From IMG/VR virus record IMGVR_UViG_3300029843_000046: a stretch of DNA of 15,255 nucleotides; one strand, 5' to 3'. This document shows positions 4,483 through 13,428 of the stretch, piece after piece. The position numbers and the translations under genes were made by a program. Position 1 is the stretch's first letter. Each line of letters starts with the position of its first letter. The stretch comes from a virus (Duplodnaviria; Heunggongvirae; Uroviricota; Caudoviricetes). The notes beneath the pieces were generated by a model, which worked only from the letters and a program-made list of their open reading frames with translations, made no database searches and was not told where the DNA came from.

Positions 4483-7036
4483 TCTTGTTATTGACCTTAG
4501 TCTGGATGCTGTCCGTTTCGATGAGCAGATGAGCCGGGTAAGGCGTCATTTTTCAGGTCTGGATACCGACGCCAGAAAAACCGCCAGTGCTGTTGAACAG
4601 GGCCTGAGCCGCCAGGCGCTGGCTGCACAAAAAGCCGGGATTTCCGTCGGGCAGTATAAAGCGGCCATGCGAACCCTGCCCGCACAGTTTACGGATATCG
4701 CCACGCAGCTTGCCGGTGGTCAGAATCCCTGGCTCATCCTGCTGCAACAGGGTGGTCAGGTGAAGGACTCCTTCGGCGGGATGATCCCCATGTTCCGGGG
4801 GCTTGCCGGTGCGATCACCCTGCCGATGGTCGGGGTCACCTCGCTGGCGGTGGCGACAGGTGCGCTGGCGTACGCCTGGTACCAGGGAGATTCCACGCTT
4901 TCAGCGTTTAATAAAACCCTGGTTCTTTCAGGTAATCAGTCCGGACTGACTGCCGATCGCATGCTGACGCTCTCCAGAGCCGGACAGGCAACTGGGCTGA
5001 CGTTTAACCAGGCGAGAGAGTCACTGGCAGCCCTGGTGAATGCCGGTGTGCGTGGTGGTGAACAGTTTGAGGCAATCAACCAGAGTGTTGCGCGTTTTGC
5101 GTCTGCATCCGGTGTGGAGGTGGATAAAGTCGCTGAAGCCTTCGGGAAGCTGACCACTGACCCGACGTCGGGACTGATGGCGATGGCGCGCCAGTTCCAT
5201 AACGTGACGGCAGAGCAGATTGCGTATGTTGCACAGCTGCAGCGTTCCGGCGATGAAGTCGGGGCATTGCAGGCGGCGAACGATATCGCCACGAAAGGCT
5301 TTGATGAGCAGACCCGTAGCCTGAAAGAAAACATGGGGACGCTGGAGACCTGGGCGGATAAAACAGGGAAGGCGTTCAAATCGATGTGGGATGCCATTCT
5401 GGATATCGGTCGTCCTGAGTCCTCAGCGGATATGCTCGCCAGTGCACAGAAGGCATTTGATGAGGCGGATAAAAAATGGCAGTGGTACCAGAGCCGGAGC
5501 CAGCGCCGGGGAAAAACCGCCTCTTTTCGTGCCAACCTTCAGGGCGCATGGGATGACCGGGAAAATGCCCGTCTGGGTCTGGCAGCGGCAACGCTGCAGT
5601 CGGATATGGAAAAAGCCGGTGAACTGGCGGCAAGGGACAGGGCTGAGCGTGAGTCGTCACAGCTGAAGTATACCGGAGAGGCGCAGAAGGCGTATGAGCG
5701 CCTGCTGACGCCACTGGAGAAATATACCGCCCGGCAGGAAGAGCTGAATAAGGCCCTGAAAGACGGGAAAATCCTGCAGGCGGATTACAACACGCTGATG
5801 GCGTCGGCAAAAAAGGATTATGAATCGACGCTGAAAAAGCCATCTGCTGTGAAGGTGTCTGCCGGTGAGCGTCAGGAAGACCGGGCGCATGCATCCATGC
5901 TGGCGCTTGAAACCGAGCTCAGGACGCTGGAAAAACACAGCGGTGTGAATGAGAAAATCAGCCAGCAGCGCCGGGATTTATGGAAAGCGGAAAATCAGTA
6001 TGTGGTCCTGAAAGAGGCCGCCACGAAACGGCAGTTATCTGAGCAGGAAAAATCCCTGCTGGCTCATGAGAAAGAGACGCTGGAGTACAAACGCCAGCTG
6101 GCTGAGCTGGGAGACAAGATTGAACACCAGAAACGGCTGAATGAGCTGGCACAGCAGGCGGCGCGGTTTGAACAGCAGCAGAGCGCGAAGCAGGCGGCAA
6201 TCAGCGCAAAAGCCCGCGGACTCACCGACCGTCAGGCGCAGCGGGAGTCGGAAGAGCAGCGCCTTCGTGAGGTGTACGGTGATAATCCGGCTGCGCTGGC
6301 GAAGGCCACATCGGCACTGAAGAACACCTGGTCTGCGGAGGAGCAGCTTCGTGGAAGCTGGATGGCCGGGATGAAGTCCGGCTGGGGAGAGTGGGCGGAA
6401 AGTGCGACGGACAGTTTTTCGCAGGTTAAAAACGCGGCCACGCAGACCTTTGATGGTATTGCGCAGAATATGGCGGCGATGCTGACCGGCAGTGAGCAGA
6501 ACTGGCGCAGCTTCACCCGCTCCGTGCTGTCCATGATGACAGAAATTCTGCTTAAGCAGGCAATGGTGGGGATTGTCGGAAGTATCGGCAGCGCCATTGG
6601 CGGGGCTGTTGGTGGTGGCGCATCCGCGTCAGGCGGTACAGCCATTCAGGCAGCTGCGGCGAAATTCCATTTTGCGACCGGAGGATTTACGGGAACCGGC
6701 GGCAAATATGAGCCAGCGGGGATTGTTCACCGTGGTGAATTTGTCTTCACGAAGGAGGCAACCAGCCGGATTGGCGTAGGAAATCTTTACCGGCTGATGC
6801 GCGGCTATGCCACCGGTGGTTATGTCGGCGGTGCCGGAAGTCCGGCGCAGATGCGGCGGGCCGAAGGTATTAATTTTAATCAGAACAATCACGTGGTGAT
6901 TCAGAACGACGGTATCAACGGACAGGCGGGGTCGCAGCTGATGAAGGCGGTGTATGACATGGCCCGCAAGGGGGCACAGGATGAACTCCGGCTGCAGTTG
7001 CGTGATGGCGGTCTGTTATCAGGGAGCGGTCGATGA
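4463..7036 (+). CDS. H: Tail tape measure protein H
   Basis: 857 aa (lambda gpH is 853 aa) with GGAGGTG ribosome-binding site. Extensive colinearity with lambda gpH as I recall it (VGDLV.DLSLDA.RFDEQM.RVRRHFSG, SAEEQLRGSWMAG, and the glycine-rich C-terminal block IGSAIGGAVGGGASASGG). The stop overlaps the M start. Confidence 0.95.
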   Translation: MSQPVGDLVIDLSLDAVRFDEQMSRVRRHFSGLDTDARKTASAVEQGLSRQALAAQKAGISVGQYKAAMRTLPAQFTDIATQLAGGQNPWLILLQQGGQVKDSFGGMIPMFRGLAGAITLPMVGVTSLAVATGALAYAWYQGDSTLSAFNKTLVLSGNQSGLTADRMLTLSRAGQATGLTFNQARESLAALVNAGVRGGEQFEAINQSVARFASASGVEVDKVAEAFGKLTTDPTSGLMAMARQFHNVTAEQIAYVAQLQRSGDEVGALQAANDIATKGFDEQTRSLKENMGTLETWADKTGKAFKSMWDAILDIGRPESSADMLASAQKAFDEADKKWQWYQSRSQRRGKTASFRANLQGAWDDRENARLGLAAATLQSDMEKAGELAARDRAERESSQLKYTGEAQKAYERLLTPLEKYTARQEELNKALKDGKILQADYNTLMASAKKDYESTLKKPSAVKVSAGERQEDRAHASMLALETELRTLEKHSGVNEKISQQRRDLWKAENQYVVLKEAATKRQLSEQEKSLLAHEKETLEYKRQLAELGDKIEHQKRLNELAQQAARFEQQQSAKQAAISAKARGLTDRQAQRESEEQRLREVYGDNPAALAKATSALKNTWSAEEQLRGSWMAGMKSGWGEWAESATDSFSQVKNAATQTFDGIAQNMAAMLTGSEQNWRSFTRSVLSMMTEILLKQAMVGIVGSIGSAIGGAVGGGASASGGTAIQAAAAKFHFATGGFTGTGGKYEPAGIVHRGEFVFTKEATSRIGVGNLYRLMRGYATGGYVGGAGSPAQMRRAEGINFNQNNHVVIQNDGINGQAGSQLMKAVYDMARKGAQDELRLQLRDGGLLSGSGR

Positions 7037-8070: not shown

Positions 8071-8814
8071 ATGACACAGACTGAATCAGCGATTCTGGCG
8101 CATGCCCGGCGGTGTGCGCCTGCGGAGTCGTGCGGCTTCGTGATAAGCACGCCGGAGGGGGAGTGGTATATCCCTTGTGTGAATATTTCCGCAGAGCCGG
8201 AGGCGTATTTTCGTATCGCACCGGAAGACTGGCTGCGGGCAGAGATGCAGGGGGAGATTGTGGCACTGGTCCACAGTCATCCCGGTGGGCTGACCTGGCT
8301 GAGCGAGGCTGACCGGCGGCTGCAGATAAAAAGCGCACTGCCCTGGTGGCTGGTCTGCCGGGGTGACATTCACAAATTCCGCTGTGTGCCACATCTGACA
8401 GGACGGCGCTTTGAGCACGGGGTGACGGACTGTTACACGCTGTTCCGGGATGCTTATCATCTGGCGGGGACTGAAATGCCGGATTTTCATCGCGAGGATG
8501 ACTGGTGGCGCAACGGTCAGAACCTTTACCTGGACAACCTGGCGGTCACCGGCTTTTACCGGGTGCCCCTGTCCTCTGCACAGGCGGGCGATATTCTGCT
8601 GTGCTGCTTTGGTGCTTCGGTACCGAACCATGCCGCCATTTACTGCGGCAACGGTGAGCTGCTTCACCATCTGCCTGAACAACTGAGTAAACGGGAGAGG
8701 TATTCCGAAAAATGGCAACGACGAACGCATTCTGTCTGGCGTCACCGCCACTGGCACGCATCTGCCTTCACGGGGATTTACAACGATTTGGCCGCCGCCT
8801 CAGCCTGTATGTGA
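8071..8814 (+). CDS. K: Tail tip assembly protein K (JAB/MPN-like plus NlpC/P60-like domains)
   Basis: First ATG of the open frame downstream of the L stop is at 8071 (MTQTESAILAHARRCAPAESCGF...); the tracked start at 7810 lies inside L and is rejected. An HSHP motif and a Cys/His pair (GVTDCYTLF, PNHAAIY) fit the MPN and NlpC/P60 folds reported for gpK. The start codon is uncertain, since lambda annotation uses a later start. Confidence 0.85.
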   Translation: MTQTESAILAHARRCAPAESCGFVISTPEGEWYIPCVNISAEPEAYFRIAPEDWLRAEMQGEIVALVHSHPGGLTWLSEADRRLQIKSALPWWLVCRGDIHKFRCVPHLTGRRFEHGVTDCYTLFRDAYHLAGTEMPDFHREDDWWRNGQNLYLDNLAVTGFYRVPLSSAQAGDILLCCFGASVPNHAAIYCGNGELLHHLPEQLSKRERYSEKWQRRTHSVWRHRHWHASAFTGIYNDLAAASACM

Positions 8815-9392
8815 ACACGGCAGCGGAAGCCATTCGCGCCCTGTCGATGCAGATGCCGGGCTTTCGCCGTCAGATGAACGAAGGCTGGTACCAGATACGT
8901 ATTGCCGGTTATGACACGGCACCGGAGGCGGTGTACGCCCGTCTTCACGAACAGCTGGGTGAGGGAACGGTCATCCATATTGTGCCGCGACTGGCCGGGG
9001 CCGGAAAGGGTGGACTGCAGATTGTGCTGGGGGCGGCAGCCATCGTGGGCTCTTTCTTCACTGCCGGTGCCTCGATGGCGTTATGGGGTACAGCCCTGAG
9101 TGCCGGCGGTTTTTCTGCCACCACGATGCTGTTTTCACTGGGGGCCAGCATGATACTGGGCGGTGTGGCCCAGATGCTGGCCCCGAAGGCAAAAACACCG
9201 GAGTACAAAAGCACGGATAACGGTAAACAGAACACCTACTTTTCCTCGCTGGATAACATGATTGCCCAGGGTAACCCGATGCCGGTGCCTTACGGGGAAA
9301 TGCTGGTTGGCTCCCGCCGTATATCCCAGGACATCAGTACCCGTGATGAAGGCGGGGGCGGAAAGGTCGTGGTTATCGGGCGGCAGGGGTAA
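8712..9392 (+). CDS. I: Tail tip assembly protein I
   Basis: 226 aa (lambda gpI is 223 aa). N-terminus MATTNAFCLASP...ARICLHGDLQRFGRR and the hydrophobic Gly/Ala-rich central segment match lambda gpI. It overlaps the 3' end of K by 103 nt in another frame, as in lambda. Confidence 0.9.
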   Translation: MATTNAFCLASPPLARICLHGDLQRFGRRLSLYVNTAAEAIRALSMQMPGFRRQMNEGWYQIRIAGYDTAPEAVYARLHEQLGEGTVIHIVPRLAGAGKGGLQIVLGAAAIVGSFFTAGASMALWGTALSAGGFSATTMLFSLGASMILGGVAQMLAPKAKTPEYKSTDNGKQNTYFSSLDNMIAQGNPMPVPYGEMLVGSRRISQDISTRDEGGGGKVVVIGRQG

Positions 9393-9438
9393 AAAGAATA
9401 AAAAAATCCCGCAGTGATCGCGGACAGGAACTGCGGGA
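9391..9438 (-). terminator. Minus-strand intrinsic terminator: 8-bp stem (9431-9438 / 9407-9414), then a U-run on the minus strand from 9406 to 9391
   Basis: Inverted repeat TCCCGCAG ... CTGCGGGA with a 16-nt loop. On the minus strand it is followed by TTTTTTTATTCTTTTT; on the + strand no T-run follows, so it is oriented for leftward transcription. Confidence 0.5.
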
Positions 9439-9496
9439 GAGTTACGAAGATTAAGTGTAAGGAATTATTCTTATATCACGACAAAAAAATTAACGC
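9395..9496 (-). ncRNA. Candidate ~100-nt small RNA in the I-J spacer, antisense to the late operon (predicted only)
   Basis: Bounded by the minus-strand promoter (-10 TATAAT at 9508-9503) and the minus-strand terminator (9438-9391). The AU-rich body has no ATG in any frame. Start and end are approximate. Confidence 0.3.
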
Positions 9497-9502
9497 AGAG
9501 AA

Positions 9503-9530
9503 ATTATACGCGCCACAGTCAGTTTGTGAA
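9503..9530 (-). promoter_or_regulatory. Sigma70-like promoter on the minus strand: -35 TTCACA (9530-9525), 16-bp spacer, -10 TATAAT (9508-9503)
   Basis: Read directly from the reverse complement: TTCACA-aactgactgtggcgcg-TATAAT, with an AT-rich upstream region and a second TTCACA copy 8 bp further upstream. Predicted transcription start near 9496. Confidence 0.45.
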
Positions 9531-9602
9531 AATGTGAAGATATTCAGAATTTTTATGCCATTACCGGTTTTAACCAACAGGATTATCGGTGGGCATGAAA
9601 GA

Positions 9603-9638
9603 AAACCCCGGTATCTGCTGATACCGGGGTTTCTCTTT
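9603..9638. terminator. Perfect 12-bp hairpin (AAACCCCGGTAT / ATACCGGGGTTT, loop CTGCTG) with T-rich flanks on both strands; possibly bidirectional
   Basis: Left arm 9603-9614, right arm 9621-9632, read from the sequence. CTCTTT follows on the + strand and TTTTC on the minus strand. Confidence 0.55.
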
Positions 9639-9735
9639 AGCATGGCAGAAATGTGTTTCATGCTTTTCGGGCGAAGGATATCCGACTTCTGTACGGAATG
9701 GCAAGTGGCGGTTAATTTATTCAGGGGAAGGCTGT

Positions 9736-12700
9736 ATGGGAAAAGGTGGCGGTAAGGCACACACGCCTCGTGAGGCGAAGGATAATCTCAAATCCACGCA
9801 GATGATGAGCGTGATTGATGCGATTGGTGAGGGACCGATAGAAGGTCCGGTGAAGGGACTGCAGAGTATCCTGGTGAACAAAACCCCGCTGACGGACACG
9901 GACGGTAATCCCGTGATACACGGTGTGACGGCGGTCTGGCGCGCCGGGGAGCAGGAGCAGACACCACCGGAAGGCTTTGAGTCCTCCGGAGCTGAAACCG
10001 GACTGGGCGTGGAAGTGACGAAGGCAAAACCGGTGACGCGCACCATTACGTCCGCGAACATTGACCGCCTGCGGGTTACCTTCGGGGTGCAGTCACTGGT
10101 GCAGACCACGTCAAAGGGCGACCGTAATCCTTCCTCTGTCCGGATTCTGATTCAGTTACAGAGTAATGGCCGCTGGGTGACGGAAAAGGATGTCACCATT
10201 AACGGCAAGACCACCTCGCAGTTCCTGGCGTCGGTGATTCTGGATAATCTGCCGCCCCGCCCCTTTAACATCCGGATGGTCCGGGAGACGGCGGACAGCA
10301 CCACGGACCAGTTGCAGAATAAGACGCTCTGGTCGTCATACACCGAAATCATCGATGTGAAACAGTGCTACCCGAACACGGCGATTGTGGGCCTGCAGGT
10401 GGATGCGGAGCAGTTTGGTGGTCAGCAGATGGCTGTGAACTACCATATCCGCGGTCGCATCATTCAGGTGCCGTCAAACTATGACCCGGAAAAACGCACG
10501 TACAGTGGTATCTGGGACGGCAGCCTGAAACCGGCATACAGCAACAATCCGGCCTGGTGTCTGTGGGACATGCTGACTCACCCGCGCTACGGCATGGGAA
10601 AACGTCTGGGGGCGGCGGATGTGGACAAGTGGGCGCTGTATGCCATCGGGCAGTACTGCGACCAGACGGTCCCGGATGGTTTCGGGGGGACCGAGCCGCG
10701 GATGACCTTTAATGCGTACCTGGCACAACAGCGTAAGGCGTGGGACGTTCTCAGTGATTTCTGCTCTGCGATGCGCTGTATGCCGGTATGGAACGGTCAG
10801 ACGCTGACGTTTGTTCAGGACCGCCCGTCGGATGTGGTGTGGCCGTACACCAACAGCGATGTGGTGGTGGATGATAACGGCGTGGGGTTCCGCTACAGCT
10901 TCAGTGCCCTGAAGGACCGGCACACGGCGGTGGAGGTGAATTACACCGACCCGCAGAACGGGTGGCAGACCTCCACGGAACTGGTGGAAGACCCGGAAGC
11001 CATACTGCGCTACGGACGCAACCTGCTGAAGATGGACGCGTTCGGCTGTACCAGCCGCGGTCAGGCCCACCGTGCCGGACTGTGGGTGATAAAGACCGAA
11101 CTGCTGGAAACGCAGACGGTGGATTTCACGCTCGGGTCTCAGGGGCTGCGGCACACACCCGGTGACATCATTGAAATCTGTGATAACGACTATGCCGGAA
11201 CCCTGACCGGCGGACGTGTCCTGTCCATCGATGCCGCCACCCGCACCCTGACGCTGGACCGTGAAGTGACACTTCCGGAGACCGGTGCCGCCACGGTGAA
11301 CCTGATTAACGGTAGCGGTAAGCCGGTGAGTGTGGACATCACCGCACACCCCGCGCCGGACCGGATACAGGTCAGTACCCTGCCTGATGGTGTGGAGACA
11401 TACGGGGTGTGGGGACTCTCCCTGCCGTCACTGCGCCGTCGCCTGTTCCGCTGTGTCTCCGTCCGGGAAAACACGGACGGCACCTTTGCCATCACGGCGG
11501 TGCAGCACGTACCGGAAAAAGAAGCCATCGTGGATAACGGGGCCCGCTTTGAGCCGCAGTCAGGCACCCTGAACAGCGTTATCCCACCGGCAGTGCAGCA
11601 CCTGACGGTGGAGGTGAGCGCAGCTGACGGCCAGTATCTGGCGCGGGCGAAATGGGACACGCCGCGGGTGGTGAAGGGCGTGCGCTTCAGTCTGCGCCTG
11701 ACCAGTGGTAAGGGAACGGATGCCAGACTGGTGACCACCGCTATCACCGCAGACACGGAGCACCGTTTCAGCGGCCTGCCGCTCGGGGAATACACCCTGA
11801 CGGTGCGGGCGATAAACAGCTATGGCCAGCAGGGTGAACCCGCCACCACCACCTTCCGGATTAACGCGCCAGCAAAACCCGCCACCATTGAGCTGACGCC
11901 GGGGTATTTTCAGATAACGGCGGTCCCGCGTCTTGCGGTGTATGACCCGACGGTACAGTTTGAACTCTGGTTCTCAGAAAAACGCATCACGAACACGGCA
12001 CAGGTGGAAAAATCTGCCCGTTATCTGGGGACCGGCAGTCAGTGGACTGTCCAGGGGAGCCGGATTAAGCCGGGGACGGATTTCTGGTTTTACGTGCGCA
12101 GCGTCAACCTGGTGGGAAAATCTGCTTTTGTGGAAGCCAGCGGGCAGCCCAGCAATGATGGTGAAGGGTATCTGGAAATTTTCCGGGGGCTGATAGATGA
12201 GACGCTGCTGGGCCAGGCACTGAAAAAGCGCATTGATGCTTCAGCGCTGCGTACGGAGGTCACGCAACTGGAAGAAGATATCCGTCAGCGGATGGACACG
12301 GATATCGCAGAAGTGACCCGGAAAATCGGGAAGGCGGAAAACAGCCTCACGCAGCTGGTTGCGAAAAAGAATGAGGACCAGACACTGGCCATCGCGCAGG
12401 TGAGCCAGAAAGTGGACCGGGTGAGCAGTGAAATCTCACAGACTGTCAGCCAGGGGCAGTCAGAAAACGCCCGACAGATAGCACAGGTCCGCCAGTACGT
12501 GGATAAAAAAGGGAGTGAAATTACCTCGACCACGGATAAAAAGCTGGGTGACCAGGCCGTGACCATACAGCAAATCCAGCGGGTTCAGTCAGACACGCGC
12601 AATGAGCTGAATGCCATGTATATGCTGAAGGTGCAGAAAACAAAAAACGGTATTCCCTATGTGGCCGGGATTGGTGCGGGGATTGAGGATGTTGATGGTC

Positions 12701-13428
12701 AGACCCTGAGTAACATTCTGCTGCAGGCCGATCGCATTGCGATGATTACCCCGGAGAACGGCAACACCACGCCGCTGTTTGTGGCGCAGGGGAATCAGCT
12801 GTTCATGAACGACGTGTTCCTGAAGCGACTGTTTGCGGTGAGCATCACGTCATCCGGCAATCCTCCTACGTTTTCCCTGACGCCGGATGGCAGGCTGGCA
12901 GCCCGCAATGCGGATATCAGTGGAGCCATCACGGCGAATACCGGCACGCTCAATAATGTCACCATTAACGAGAACTGTGTCATCAGAGGGAAACTGTCTG
13001 CAAACCAGATTGAAGGCGATCTCGTTAAAACAGTGGGTAAGGCTTTCCCCCGTGACTCCCGTGCACCGGAGAGGTGGCCATCAGGGACCATTACCGTCAG
13101 GGTTTATGACGATCAGCCGTTTGACCGGCAAATTGTTATTCCGGCGGTGGCATTCAGCGGTGCCAGACATGAGCGGGAGAATAACGATATTTATTCGTCA
13201 TGCCGCCTGATAGTACGGAAAAACGGTGCTGAAATTTATAACCGTACCGCGCTGGATAATACGCTGGTTTACAGTGGTGTTATTGATATGCCTGCTGGTC
13301 GCGGCCACATGACGCTGGAGTTTTCTGTATCAGCATGGTGGGTAAATGGCTGGTATCCCACAGCAAGTATCAGCGATTTGCTGGTTGTTGTGATGAAGAA
13401 AGCCACTGCAGGCATCACGATTAGCTGA
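9736..13428 (+). CDS. J: Central tail fibre / host specificity protein J
   Basis: 1230 aa with AGGGGAAGG ribosome-binding site. N-terminus [22 protein letters not shown] and long blocks ([96 protein letters not shown], the C-terminal block ending [17 protein letters not shown]...[19 protein letters not shown]) match lambda gpJ as I recall it. Confidence 0.95.

Follow-up and report, generated by a model that had tools for sequence, protein, structure and literature searches.

Does the unusually long spacer between the tail genes I and J of this prophage carry a gene of its own, and if so, has a gene of that kind been described before? The window, by which we mean the whole stretch of 15,255 nucleotides that was analysed, is taken from the head-tail region of a lambdoid prophage and extends from the gene for the major capsid protein as far as the side tail fibre. 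The queried stretch is 100% identical to prophages in CFT073, S88, ATCC 25922 and many other E. coli. Upstream of the spacer lies the tail assembly gene I (8712-9392, plus strand; Pfam Lambda_tail_I; the RefSeq start corresponds to window position 8811) and downstream of it the tail tip and host specificity gene J (9736-13428, plus strand; Pfam GpJ domain). The CFT073 prophage, which is 100% identical, carries the same two genes in its RefSeq annotation.

The spacer itself (9393-9735) is 343 bp long and shows no conserved ORF. A preliminary description of this DNA had called it AT-rich and had given only about 60 bp between I and J for lambda. Both statements were correct: the G+C fraction of the spacer is 0.417 compared to 0.557 for the whole window and 0.58-0.60 for genes I and J, with a value of only 0.363 in the I-proximal half, and the gap in lambda is 60 bp (I ends at 15444 and J starts at 15505). 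Compared with lambda, the small RNA (sRNA) cassette described below is an insertion. In CFT073 (NC_004431.1; L165 9514-9856) RefSeq tags gene I as C_RS06865 and gene J as C_RS06875, which skips one number. No RefSeq feature is annotated in the CFT073 spacer now, and the skipped tag may stand for a feature that was once called there and later withdrawn.

Promoter, terminator and predicted transcript

On the minus strand we found a candidate sigma-70 promoter (9503-9530) in which TTCACA (9530-9525) and TATAAT (9508-9503) are separated by a 16-nt spacer, matching the consensus at 11 of 12 positions. This is exactly the promoter that the preliminary description had proposed. A consensus-only scan detected three promoter-like sites in the region, where 0.8 were expected from shuffled sequences. 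The promoter is followed by a putative intrinsic terminator (9400-9437, minus strand) with a 7-bp stem CCCGCAG/CUGCGGG, a 16-nt loop and a tail of A plus U7. The two arms are located at 9437-9431 (CCCGCAG) and 9414-9408 (CTGCGGG); after the A comes the U7 run (9406-9400) and then AUUCUUUUU. The predicted fold has a free energy of −15.7 kcal/mol (z = −4.2) and none of 200 shuffled sequences was equally stable. Thus the hairpin that had been noticed earlier stands, whereas the 3' end that had been placed at 9391 does not: an end in the U7 run at about 9400 is likelier.

From these elements we infer a transcription start about 7 nt past the −10 element, at G9496, and an end in the U7 run. The predicted primary transcript, a PasB-family sRNA as we describe below, therefore covers 9496-9400 on the minus strand (97 nt, counted from G9496 through the final U of U7; NC_004431.1 1364148-1364244 in CFT073). 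It does not contain an AUG, as had been said of it before. The earlier estimate of about 100 nt needs correcting, as members of the family give RNAs of 83-85 nt on northern blots.

Homologues at the same position

Two published sets of sRNAs map to the same junction. The first is PasB (E2348CN_0006), an 83-nt RNA from prophage PP6 of the EPEC strain O127:H6 E2348/69 (NC_011601.1 1466343-1466261, minus strand; Pearl Mizrahi et al. 2021, PMC8550237 Table S6). PasB was detected on a northern blot and has 37 partners in RIL-seq, and in an hfq mutant its level was down 2^6.8-fold in activating medium and 2^2.4-fold in overnight static LB (PMC8550237). We found that its interval is the I-J spacer of PP6, that it runs opposite to the tail genes and that its 3' end is 6 nt from the I stop. 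The published northern probe for PasB, AATCCCGCAGTGATCGCGGAGCT (PMC8550237), is identical to window positions 9405-9424 at 20 of 23 positions. The published 5' end of PasB is 22 nt downstream of its −10 element and corresponds to window position 9483, which points to processing of the 5' end at the U-run or to imprecise mapping of the ends. By homology with this end, a shorter 84-nt form of the window RNA would start at 9483.

The second set consists of EcOnc22, EcOnc23 and EcOnc24, which are Hfq-CRAC peaks in the prophages Sp15 (Stx1), Sp14 and Sp11, respectively, of EHEC O157:H7 Sakai (Tree et al. 2014, PMC4104026 Table S2). These peaks belong to I-J spacers and are antisense to the tail genes, and in the published coordinates they lie 22-24 nt past the J start. 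EcOnc22 was seen as a northern band of about 85 nt that is destabilised without hfq (PMC4104026), and its target was given as unknown in a 2021 review. The coordinates of Tree et al. refer to an older version of the Sakai genome and we calibrated them on AgvB and HnrS. AgvB, located on NC_002695.2 with Rfam, is 137-146 nt above its published peak, and the terminator of HnrS together with its length of 66 nt gives an offset of 132-149 nt. Overall the positions in Table S2 are shifted by about +128 to +146 nt relative to NC_002695.2, at least across 1.94-2.23 Mb. Once shifted, the three EcOnc peaks are placed on the body of the PasB-homologous RNA (for EcOnc22, L003 ~2343-2421). If the coordinates were taken unshifted on NC_002695.2, the EcOnc22 peak would fall on the J-proximal hairpin, a placement that the calibration rejects. 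On the basis of this coordinate shift, PasB and EcOnc22-24 are one locus, found twice by experiment under two names. We found no paper that equates EcOnc22-24 with PasB, and in the literature we found neither a published target nor a phenotype of a PasB deletion. The Sp12 copy of Sakai, which has a spacer architecture like that of the window, is absent from the 64 CRAC peaks of the table of Tree et al., and the locus is not mentioned in the UPEC Hfq co-immunoprecipitation paper.

The preliminary description had left open whether the locus matches any described sRNA and had proposed a search with Rfam and Infernal. Rfam gave no match in the window at the gathering threshold. With relaxed E-values we only obtained matches at chance level, the best of them with 19.6 bits against a threshold of 60. 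PasB and EcOnc22 are likewise without an Rfam family. A purpose-built covariance model, by contrast, was positive: model R1 was made from 13 members with all window-type sequences excluded, and it matched 9496-9400 on the minus strand end to end (model positions 1-94 of 94) with 63 bits and an E-value of 3.4e-10. A scan of the window with the same model detected no second significant match. The window copy is located between I and J, opposite to the late operon and with its 3' end beside the I stop, and it has its own sigma-70 promoter and an intrinsic terminator with a long U tail. The locus thus does match a described sRNA at the level of the family (PasB / EcOnc22-24).

Within this family the window RNA is a distant member, with a global identity of 74% to PasB and 74% to EcOnc22. 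The identity to PasB differs between segments: 94% for the promoter (53 nt), 67% for the body and 87% for the terminator. A 2026 preprint (Zhu, Shabalina and Storz) took a census of PasB by blastn with a word size of 28 and a query coverage above 75%, and reports that PasB variants differ by only a few nucleotides. When we compared the 83-nt PasB query to the window, megablast returned no match and blastn only 25 nt of the terminator (30% coverage), so that the window allele falls outside the published definition of a PasB variant. It is a diverged relative and not a PasB variant in the sense of the census, and the census settings would miss it.

What the window RNA shares with PasB is the position, the strand, the promoter, the 3' half of the terminator, the U7 tail and the order of the motifs, namely GCGUUA, a U-run, A-R-N repeats, AAYUCCUU, UU(A/G)AUCUUC and the hairpin. 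It differs in the loop of the terminator (16 nt compared to 11 nt in PasB), and its spacer has an additional module of about 100 bp beside J. With EcOnc22-24 it shares the locus, the strand and the scaffold; they differ from it by a weaker −35 element (CCGGCA), by AATAAT as −10 element and by a short spacer type of 240 bp. The feature is therefore a member of a family already described and detected by experiment rather than an element of a new kind. What is new is that 9496-9400 (minus strand), a very common but diverged allele, is assigned to the PasB family, and that PasB is linked to EcOnc22-24. The picture of a scaffold with a variable body and the conserved CRP-like box described below are new as well.

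Conservation, internal motifs and the remaining spacer

We aligned the window with the corresponding spacers of Sakai Sp12, Sp15, Sp11 and Sp14 and of PP6 from E2348/69. All of them showed a common order of elements on the minus strand: (G)AATAAAA-TTCTGAA-NN-TCTTCACATTT, the −35 and −10 elements, GCGUUA, a U-run and an A-rich stretch, followed by AAYUCCNU, UU(A/G)AUCUUC and CCCGCAG-loop-CUGCGGG-A-U7. A pattern search of IMG/VR returned 129 copies with 49 unique variants of promoter plus RNA, and the window type was the commonest in this sample (18 of the 129 copies). The same picture emerged from a second search that had AATCTT and the terminator's 3' arm as its only anchors; AATCTT is part of UUAAUCUUC and had not been an anchor in the first search. 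Across 40-58 unique variants we found that the promoter block, the −10 element, GCGUUA with the U-run, AAYUCC, UUAAUCUUC and the CCCGCAG arm were kept, whereas the loop and the body varied. The invariance of the 3' arm of the terminator and of the promoter block is partly by construction, as both were within the search patterns. The 5' arm was outside every search pattern and was invariant in 24 diverse variants with loops of 4-16 nt. A lack of conservation of promoter and terminator across related prophages had been named beforehand as a finding that would speak against an sRNA; both elements were kept across the variants.

Of 5,426 complete E. coli genomes, 1,842 contained the segment of promoter plus RNA; it occurred at 4,590 places in all, with no more than 9 in any one genome. 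For 636 records of complete E. coli genomes the best match was at least 99% identical to the window. Among the matches listed for these genomes there was no annotated feature beneath the family locus. In a search of one genome per species the strict pattern was confined to E. albertii and two contigs that resemble contamination. These two contigs, one of 460 bp assigned to Parendozoicomonas haliclonae (L127) and one of 3.4 kb assigned to Streptomyces flavalbus (L129), carry the sRNA locus and are most likely assembly contamination. An sRNA family that occurs in about one third of complete E. coli genomes is still without an Rfam model. PasB, EcOnc22-24 and the window allele of extraintestinal strains such as CFT073 can be brought under a single family definition, for which the covariance model offers a route to annotation. 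Outside EPEC and EHEC, the published census with its high-stringency BLAST has probably missed members of the family.

Upstream of the promoter we observed a conserved bipartite motif TCTGA-N6-TCACA (9533-9548, minus strand; AAATGTGAAGATATTCAGAATT on the plus strand) that resembles a CRP site at 9 of 10 core positions and is centred at about −44.5 from the predicted start. The half-sites were kept across variants and the 6-nt spacer between them changed (ATATCT, AACTCT, AATTCT, ATTTCT and GTTTAT). Of the 22 positions of the full CRP consensus, 14 agree. In class II CRP promoters TGTGA-N6-TCACA has its canonical centre at −41.5, compared to about −44.5 here. PasB is more abundant in overnight static LB, a condition in which the CRP-repressed Spf is low (PMC8550237). 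Binding of CRP to the conserved box is only inferred from the sequence.

Within the RNA, AAGAAUAAU (9464-9472, minus strand) contains three A-R-N repeats and may be where the distal face of Hfq makes contact. All variants that we folded retained three or more A-R-N repeats directly before AAYUCCNU, despite changes in the sequence, and such repeats would fit a distal-face contact. Together with the U7 tail and the U-rich stretch before the hairpin they make up the sequence features that fit Hfq. The window form of the conserved AAYUCCNU, AAUUCCUU (9459-9466, minus strand), has a mean unpaired probability of 0.63 and is a candidate seed. A further candidate seed is UUAAUCUUC (9446-9454, minus strand), which is the most conserved internal motif of the family and lies just upstream of the terminator. 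AAYUCCUU and UUAAUCUUC are likely seeds in the predicted structures because both are mostly unpaired in the ensembles and because AAYUCCUU is complementary to the Shine-Dalgarno-like AAGGA. The seed of PasB was placed just upstream of the terminator as well (Zhu, Shabalina and Storz 2026 preprint).

The most prominent element in the rest of the spacer is a strong hairpin at 9598-9638 with a 13-bp GC-rich core (9603-9632) and a free energy of −27.1 kcal/mol on the plus strand (z = −7.2). It is located between the sRNA promoter and J, has an A-run before it and a T-run after it on both strands and looks like a bidirectional intrinsic terminator. In the long-class spacers (the window and Sakai Sp12) this hairpin is contained in a J-proximal module of 185-186 nt. 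As the module was found only in the I-J context and with an identity of ~100%, the comparison is uninformative on its function. The short-class spacers (PP6, Sp15, Sp11 and Sp14) have a J-proximal module of 83-93 nt with a sense-oriented hairpin CAGGCAYCC...GGRTGCCTG followed by a T-rich stretch, in which one C-G pair is changed to T-A in a compensatory manner between variants. Lambda has a terminator-like hairpin in sense orientation at 15466-15494 (L130 767-795), within its 60-bp gap, ACCGCC-TGCG-GGCGGT followed by TTTGTCATTT, just before the J ribosome-binding site. We know of no described role for either the lambda hairpin or that of the short class. A candidate second transcript (9589-9704, minus strand) was suggested by a pattern match to a weak promoter TTGCCA-18-TATCCT at 9704-9675. 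The RNA would run from about 9668 to 9589, would be ~80 nt long with a 5' stem-loop and an A-rich linker, and would end at the 9598-9638 hairpin. We found no experimental or comparative support for this candidate, and by the covariance model it is not a paralogue of PasB.

Other phages carry different genes at this junction. In one class we found sodC (Pfam Sod_Cu, E = 4e-32) in antisense orientation and with its own terminator (L131 1050-1790; the same class also includes L133, L139-L143, L145, L147, L150 and L153). Here sodC replaces the sRNA promoter, and an sRNA body and terminator of the window type persist just downstream. With sodC inserted at the same junction, I-J is therefore a general moron site. 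The I-J spacers of L008 (~9969-10240, minus strand) and L134 hold PasB-like genes in tandem, and the pattern matched twice in both L045 and L053. In L008 the second copy has retained the upstream promoter block together with AACUCCUUAA, but differs in its body and in its terminator, CUCCCG...UGCGGGAG followed by U6. A tentative reading, which we regard as possible rather than probable, is that I-J serves as a cassette site in which a fixed scaffold receives interchangeable bodies and that the window allele is a functionally distinct sRNA. The scaffold would consist of the CRP-like box, the promoter, the leader with GCGUUA and the U-run, and the terminator, at a site that also accepts sodC and tandem sRNA genes. 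If this were true, the window allele would have either its own host regulon or a role in allele-specific antisense immunity to phages that share its spacer.

Mode of action and comparison with other prophage sRNAs

For the homologues, a transcript of 83-85 nt, dependence on Hfq, cross-linking to Hfq and many RNA partners have been documented. The sequence of the window allele shows homology, the same position and an intact promoter, leader, terminator and set of motifs. We consider it likely that 9496-9400 (minus strand) is a PasB-family sRNA gene, present as a moron-type insertion between the I stop and the hairpin before J, whose product acts in trans with Hfq as proposed. The preliminary description had arrived at a terminator-ended, Hfq-type sRNA that is transcribed against the late operon like a moron, and what has been shown for PasB and EcOnc22-24 at the same position supports it. 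In the lysogen the sRNA would be transcribed from its own sigma-70 promoter, against a silent late operon. The intrinsic terminator would end the RNA, and its U-tail and the A-R-N repeats further upstream would bind Hfq. The single-stranded body, with AAYUCCUU, UUAAUCUUC and the allele-specific flanks, would then pair in trans, with ribosome-binding sites as the most likely contact points, and alter the translation or stability of the mRNAs. Its most likely effect in the lysogen is that mRNAs are repressed or remodelled in trans. For the window allele itself, expression, the seed, the mode of action and any targets are predictions, and the PasB partners are not transferable to it because the body is only 67% identical.

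The best-surviving alternative, which we nevertheless regard as unlikely, is that the RNA acts in cis or as an allele-specific antisense RNA on the I-J stretch of the late mRNA. This mRNA would come from the induced prophage itself or from a superinfecting phage that carries an identical spacer allele. Cleavage or interference could then set J expression or confer superinfection immunity, and such an effect may coexist with regulation in trans. The gene is, by construction, fully complementary to the late transcript, and the Salmonella prophage BTP1 offers a precedent with STnc6030, which confers immunity to BTP1 and not to P22 (PMC7067206). Furthermore, the body is the most variable part and the scaffold is fixed, as allele-specific recognition predicts. 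However, the RNA is complementary to a non-coding stretch ~240 nt upstream of the J ribosome-binding site, and direct masking of J translation is therefore impossible. The short motifs that are conserved across alleles and the many Hfq-mediated partners of PasB in trans both point to pairing in trans instead, and no phage phenotype is known.

That the promoter and the hairpin are remnants, or chance matches in AT-rich filler that give no stable RNA, seems very improbable. AT-rich DNA readily yields promoter-like hexamers, the scan was consensus-only and we found no expression data for the window allele. Against this, the promoter shares 94% identity with the promoter of PasB, which is expressed, and the terminator arm and the internal motifs were kept across many diverged variants. 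The exact allele is also widespread, being the best match at 99% identity or more in 636 records and the commonest IMG/VR type with 18 of 129 copies. Least probable of all is a small protein encoded on either strand of the spacer. Two mechanical GTG-start ORFs do span it (113 aa on the plus strand, 9414-9755, and 94 aa on the minus strand, 9476-9760), one phage record annotates a hypothetical protein there and a tag number is missing between I and J in CFT073. Neither ORF, however, had a PHROG match better than E = 0.09, and both read through a terminator hairpin and a promoter. Both are also lost in the Sakai Sp12 spacer, which is 90% identical but has small indels (1-3 nt) that shift the frames, and the short-class spacers are without the DNA in question. 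We therefore rejected the coding hypothesis, in agreement with the earlier view that the spacer holds no credible protein-coding frame.

The predicted sRNA can also be set beside the other sRNAs of lambdoid prophages, and none of the other prophage-sRNA families in Rfam matched the window. As a positive control for this search, Rfam found AgvB in Sakai Sp10 at 96.5 bits. AgvB and AsxR (RF02702, RF02703) were rejected as identities of the window RNA, as they occupy the moron site of the Q-lysis region at PR' and had no Rfam match in the window. The genes of PasA, PasC and PasD are likewise located in the Q-lysis (PR') region, unlike the I-J spacer. HnrS (EcOnc10-12, 66 nt) was rejected because in Sakai Sp12 it lies between Rz and the gene for the terminase small subunit and is unrelated in sequence. 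The positions of three further candidates led to their rejection: svsR of prophage NC-SV is at the 3' end of cI, EsrF in the 3' region of glnA and EvrS in the Q-proximal region, beside a regulator and an esterase gene.

STnc6030 of BTP1 (Owen et al. 2020, PMC7067206) resembles the window RNA in being antisense to the late structural operon during lysogeny. It differs in its length of >700 nt, in overlapping coding sequence (the DNA-injection and tailspike genes) and in being an antisense immunity factor, and it has no sequence relation to the window RNA. The combination of a fixed scaffold with a variable body makes the PasB family a convenient system for studying how prophage sRNAs change their targets. 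AgvB/AsxR, HnrS (EcOnc10-12), PasA/C/D-STnc100, EvrS and svsR are likewise short, terminator-ended morons of lambdoid prophages that are made in the lysogen, and several other Hfq-dependent sRNAs of lambdoid prophages also combine a conserved 3' part with a variable pairing part.
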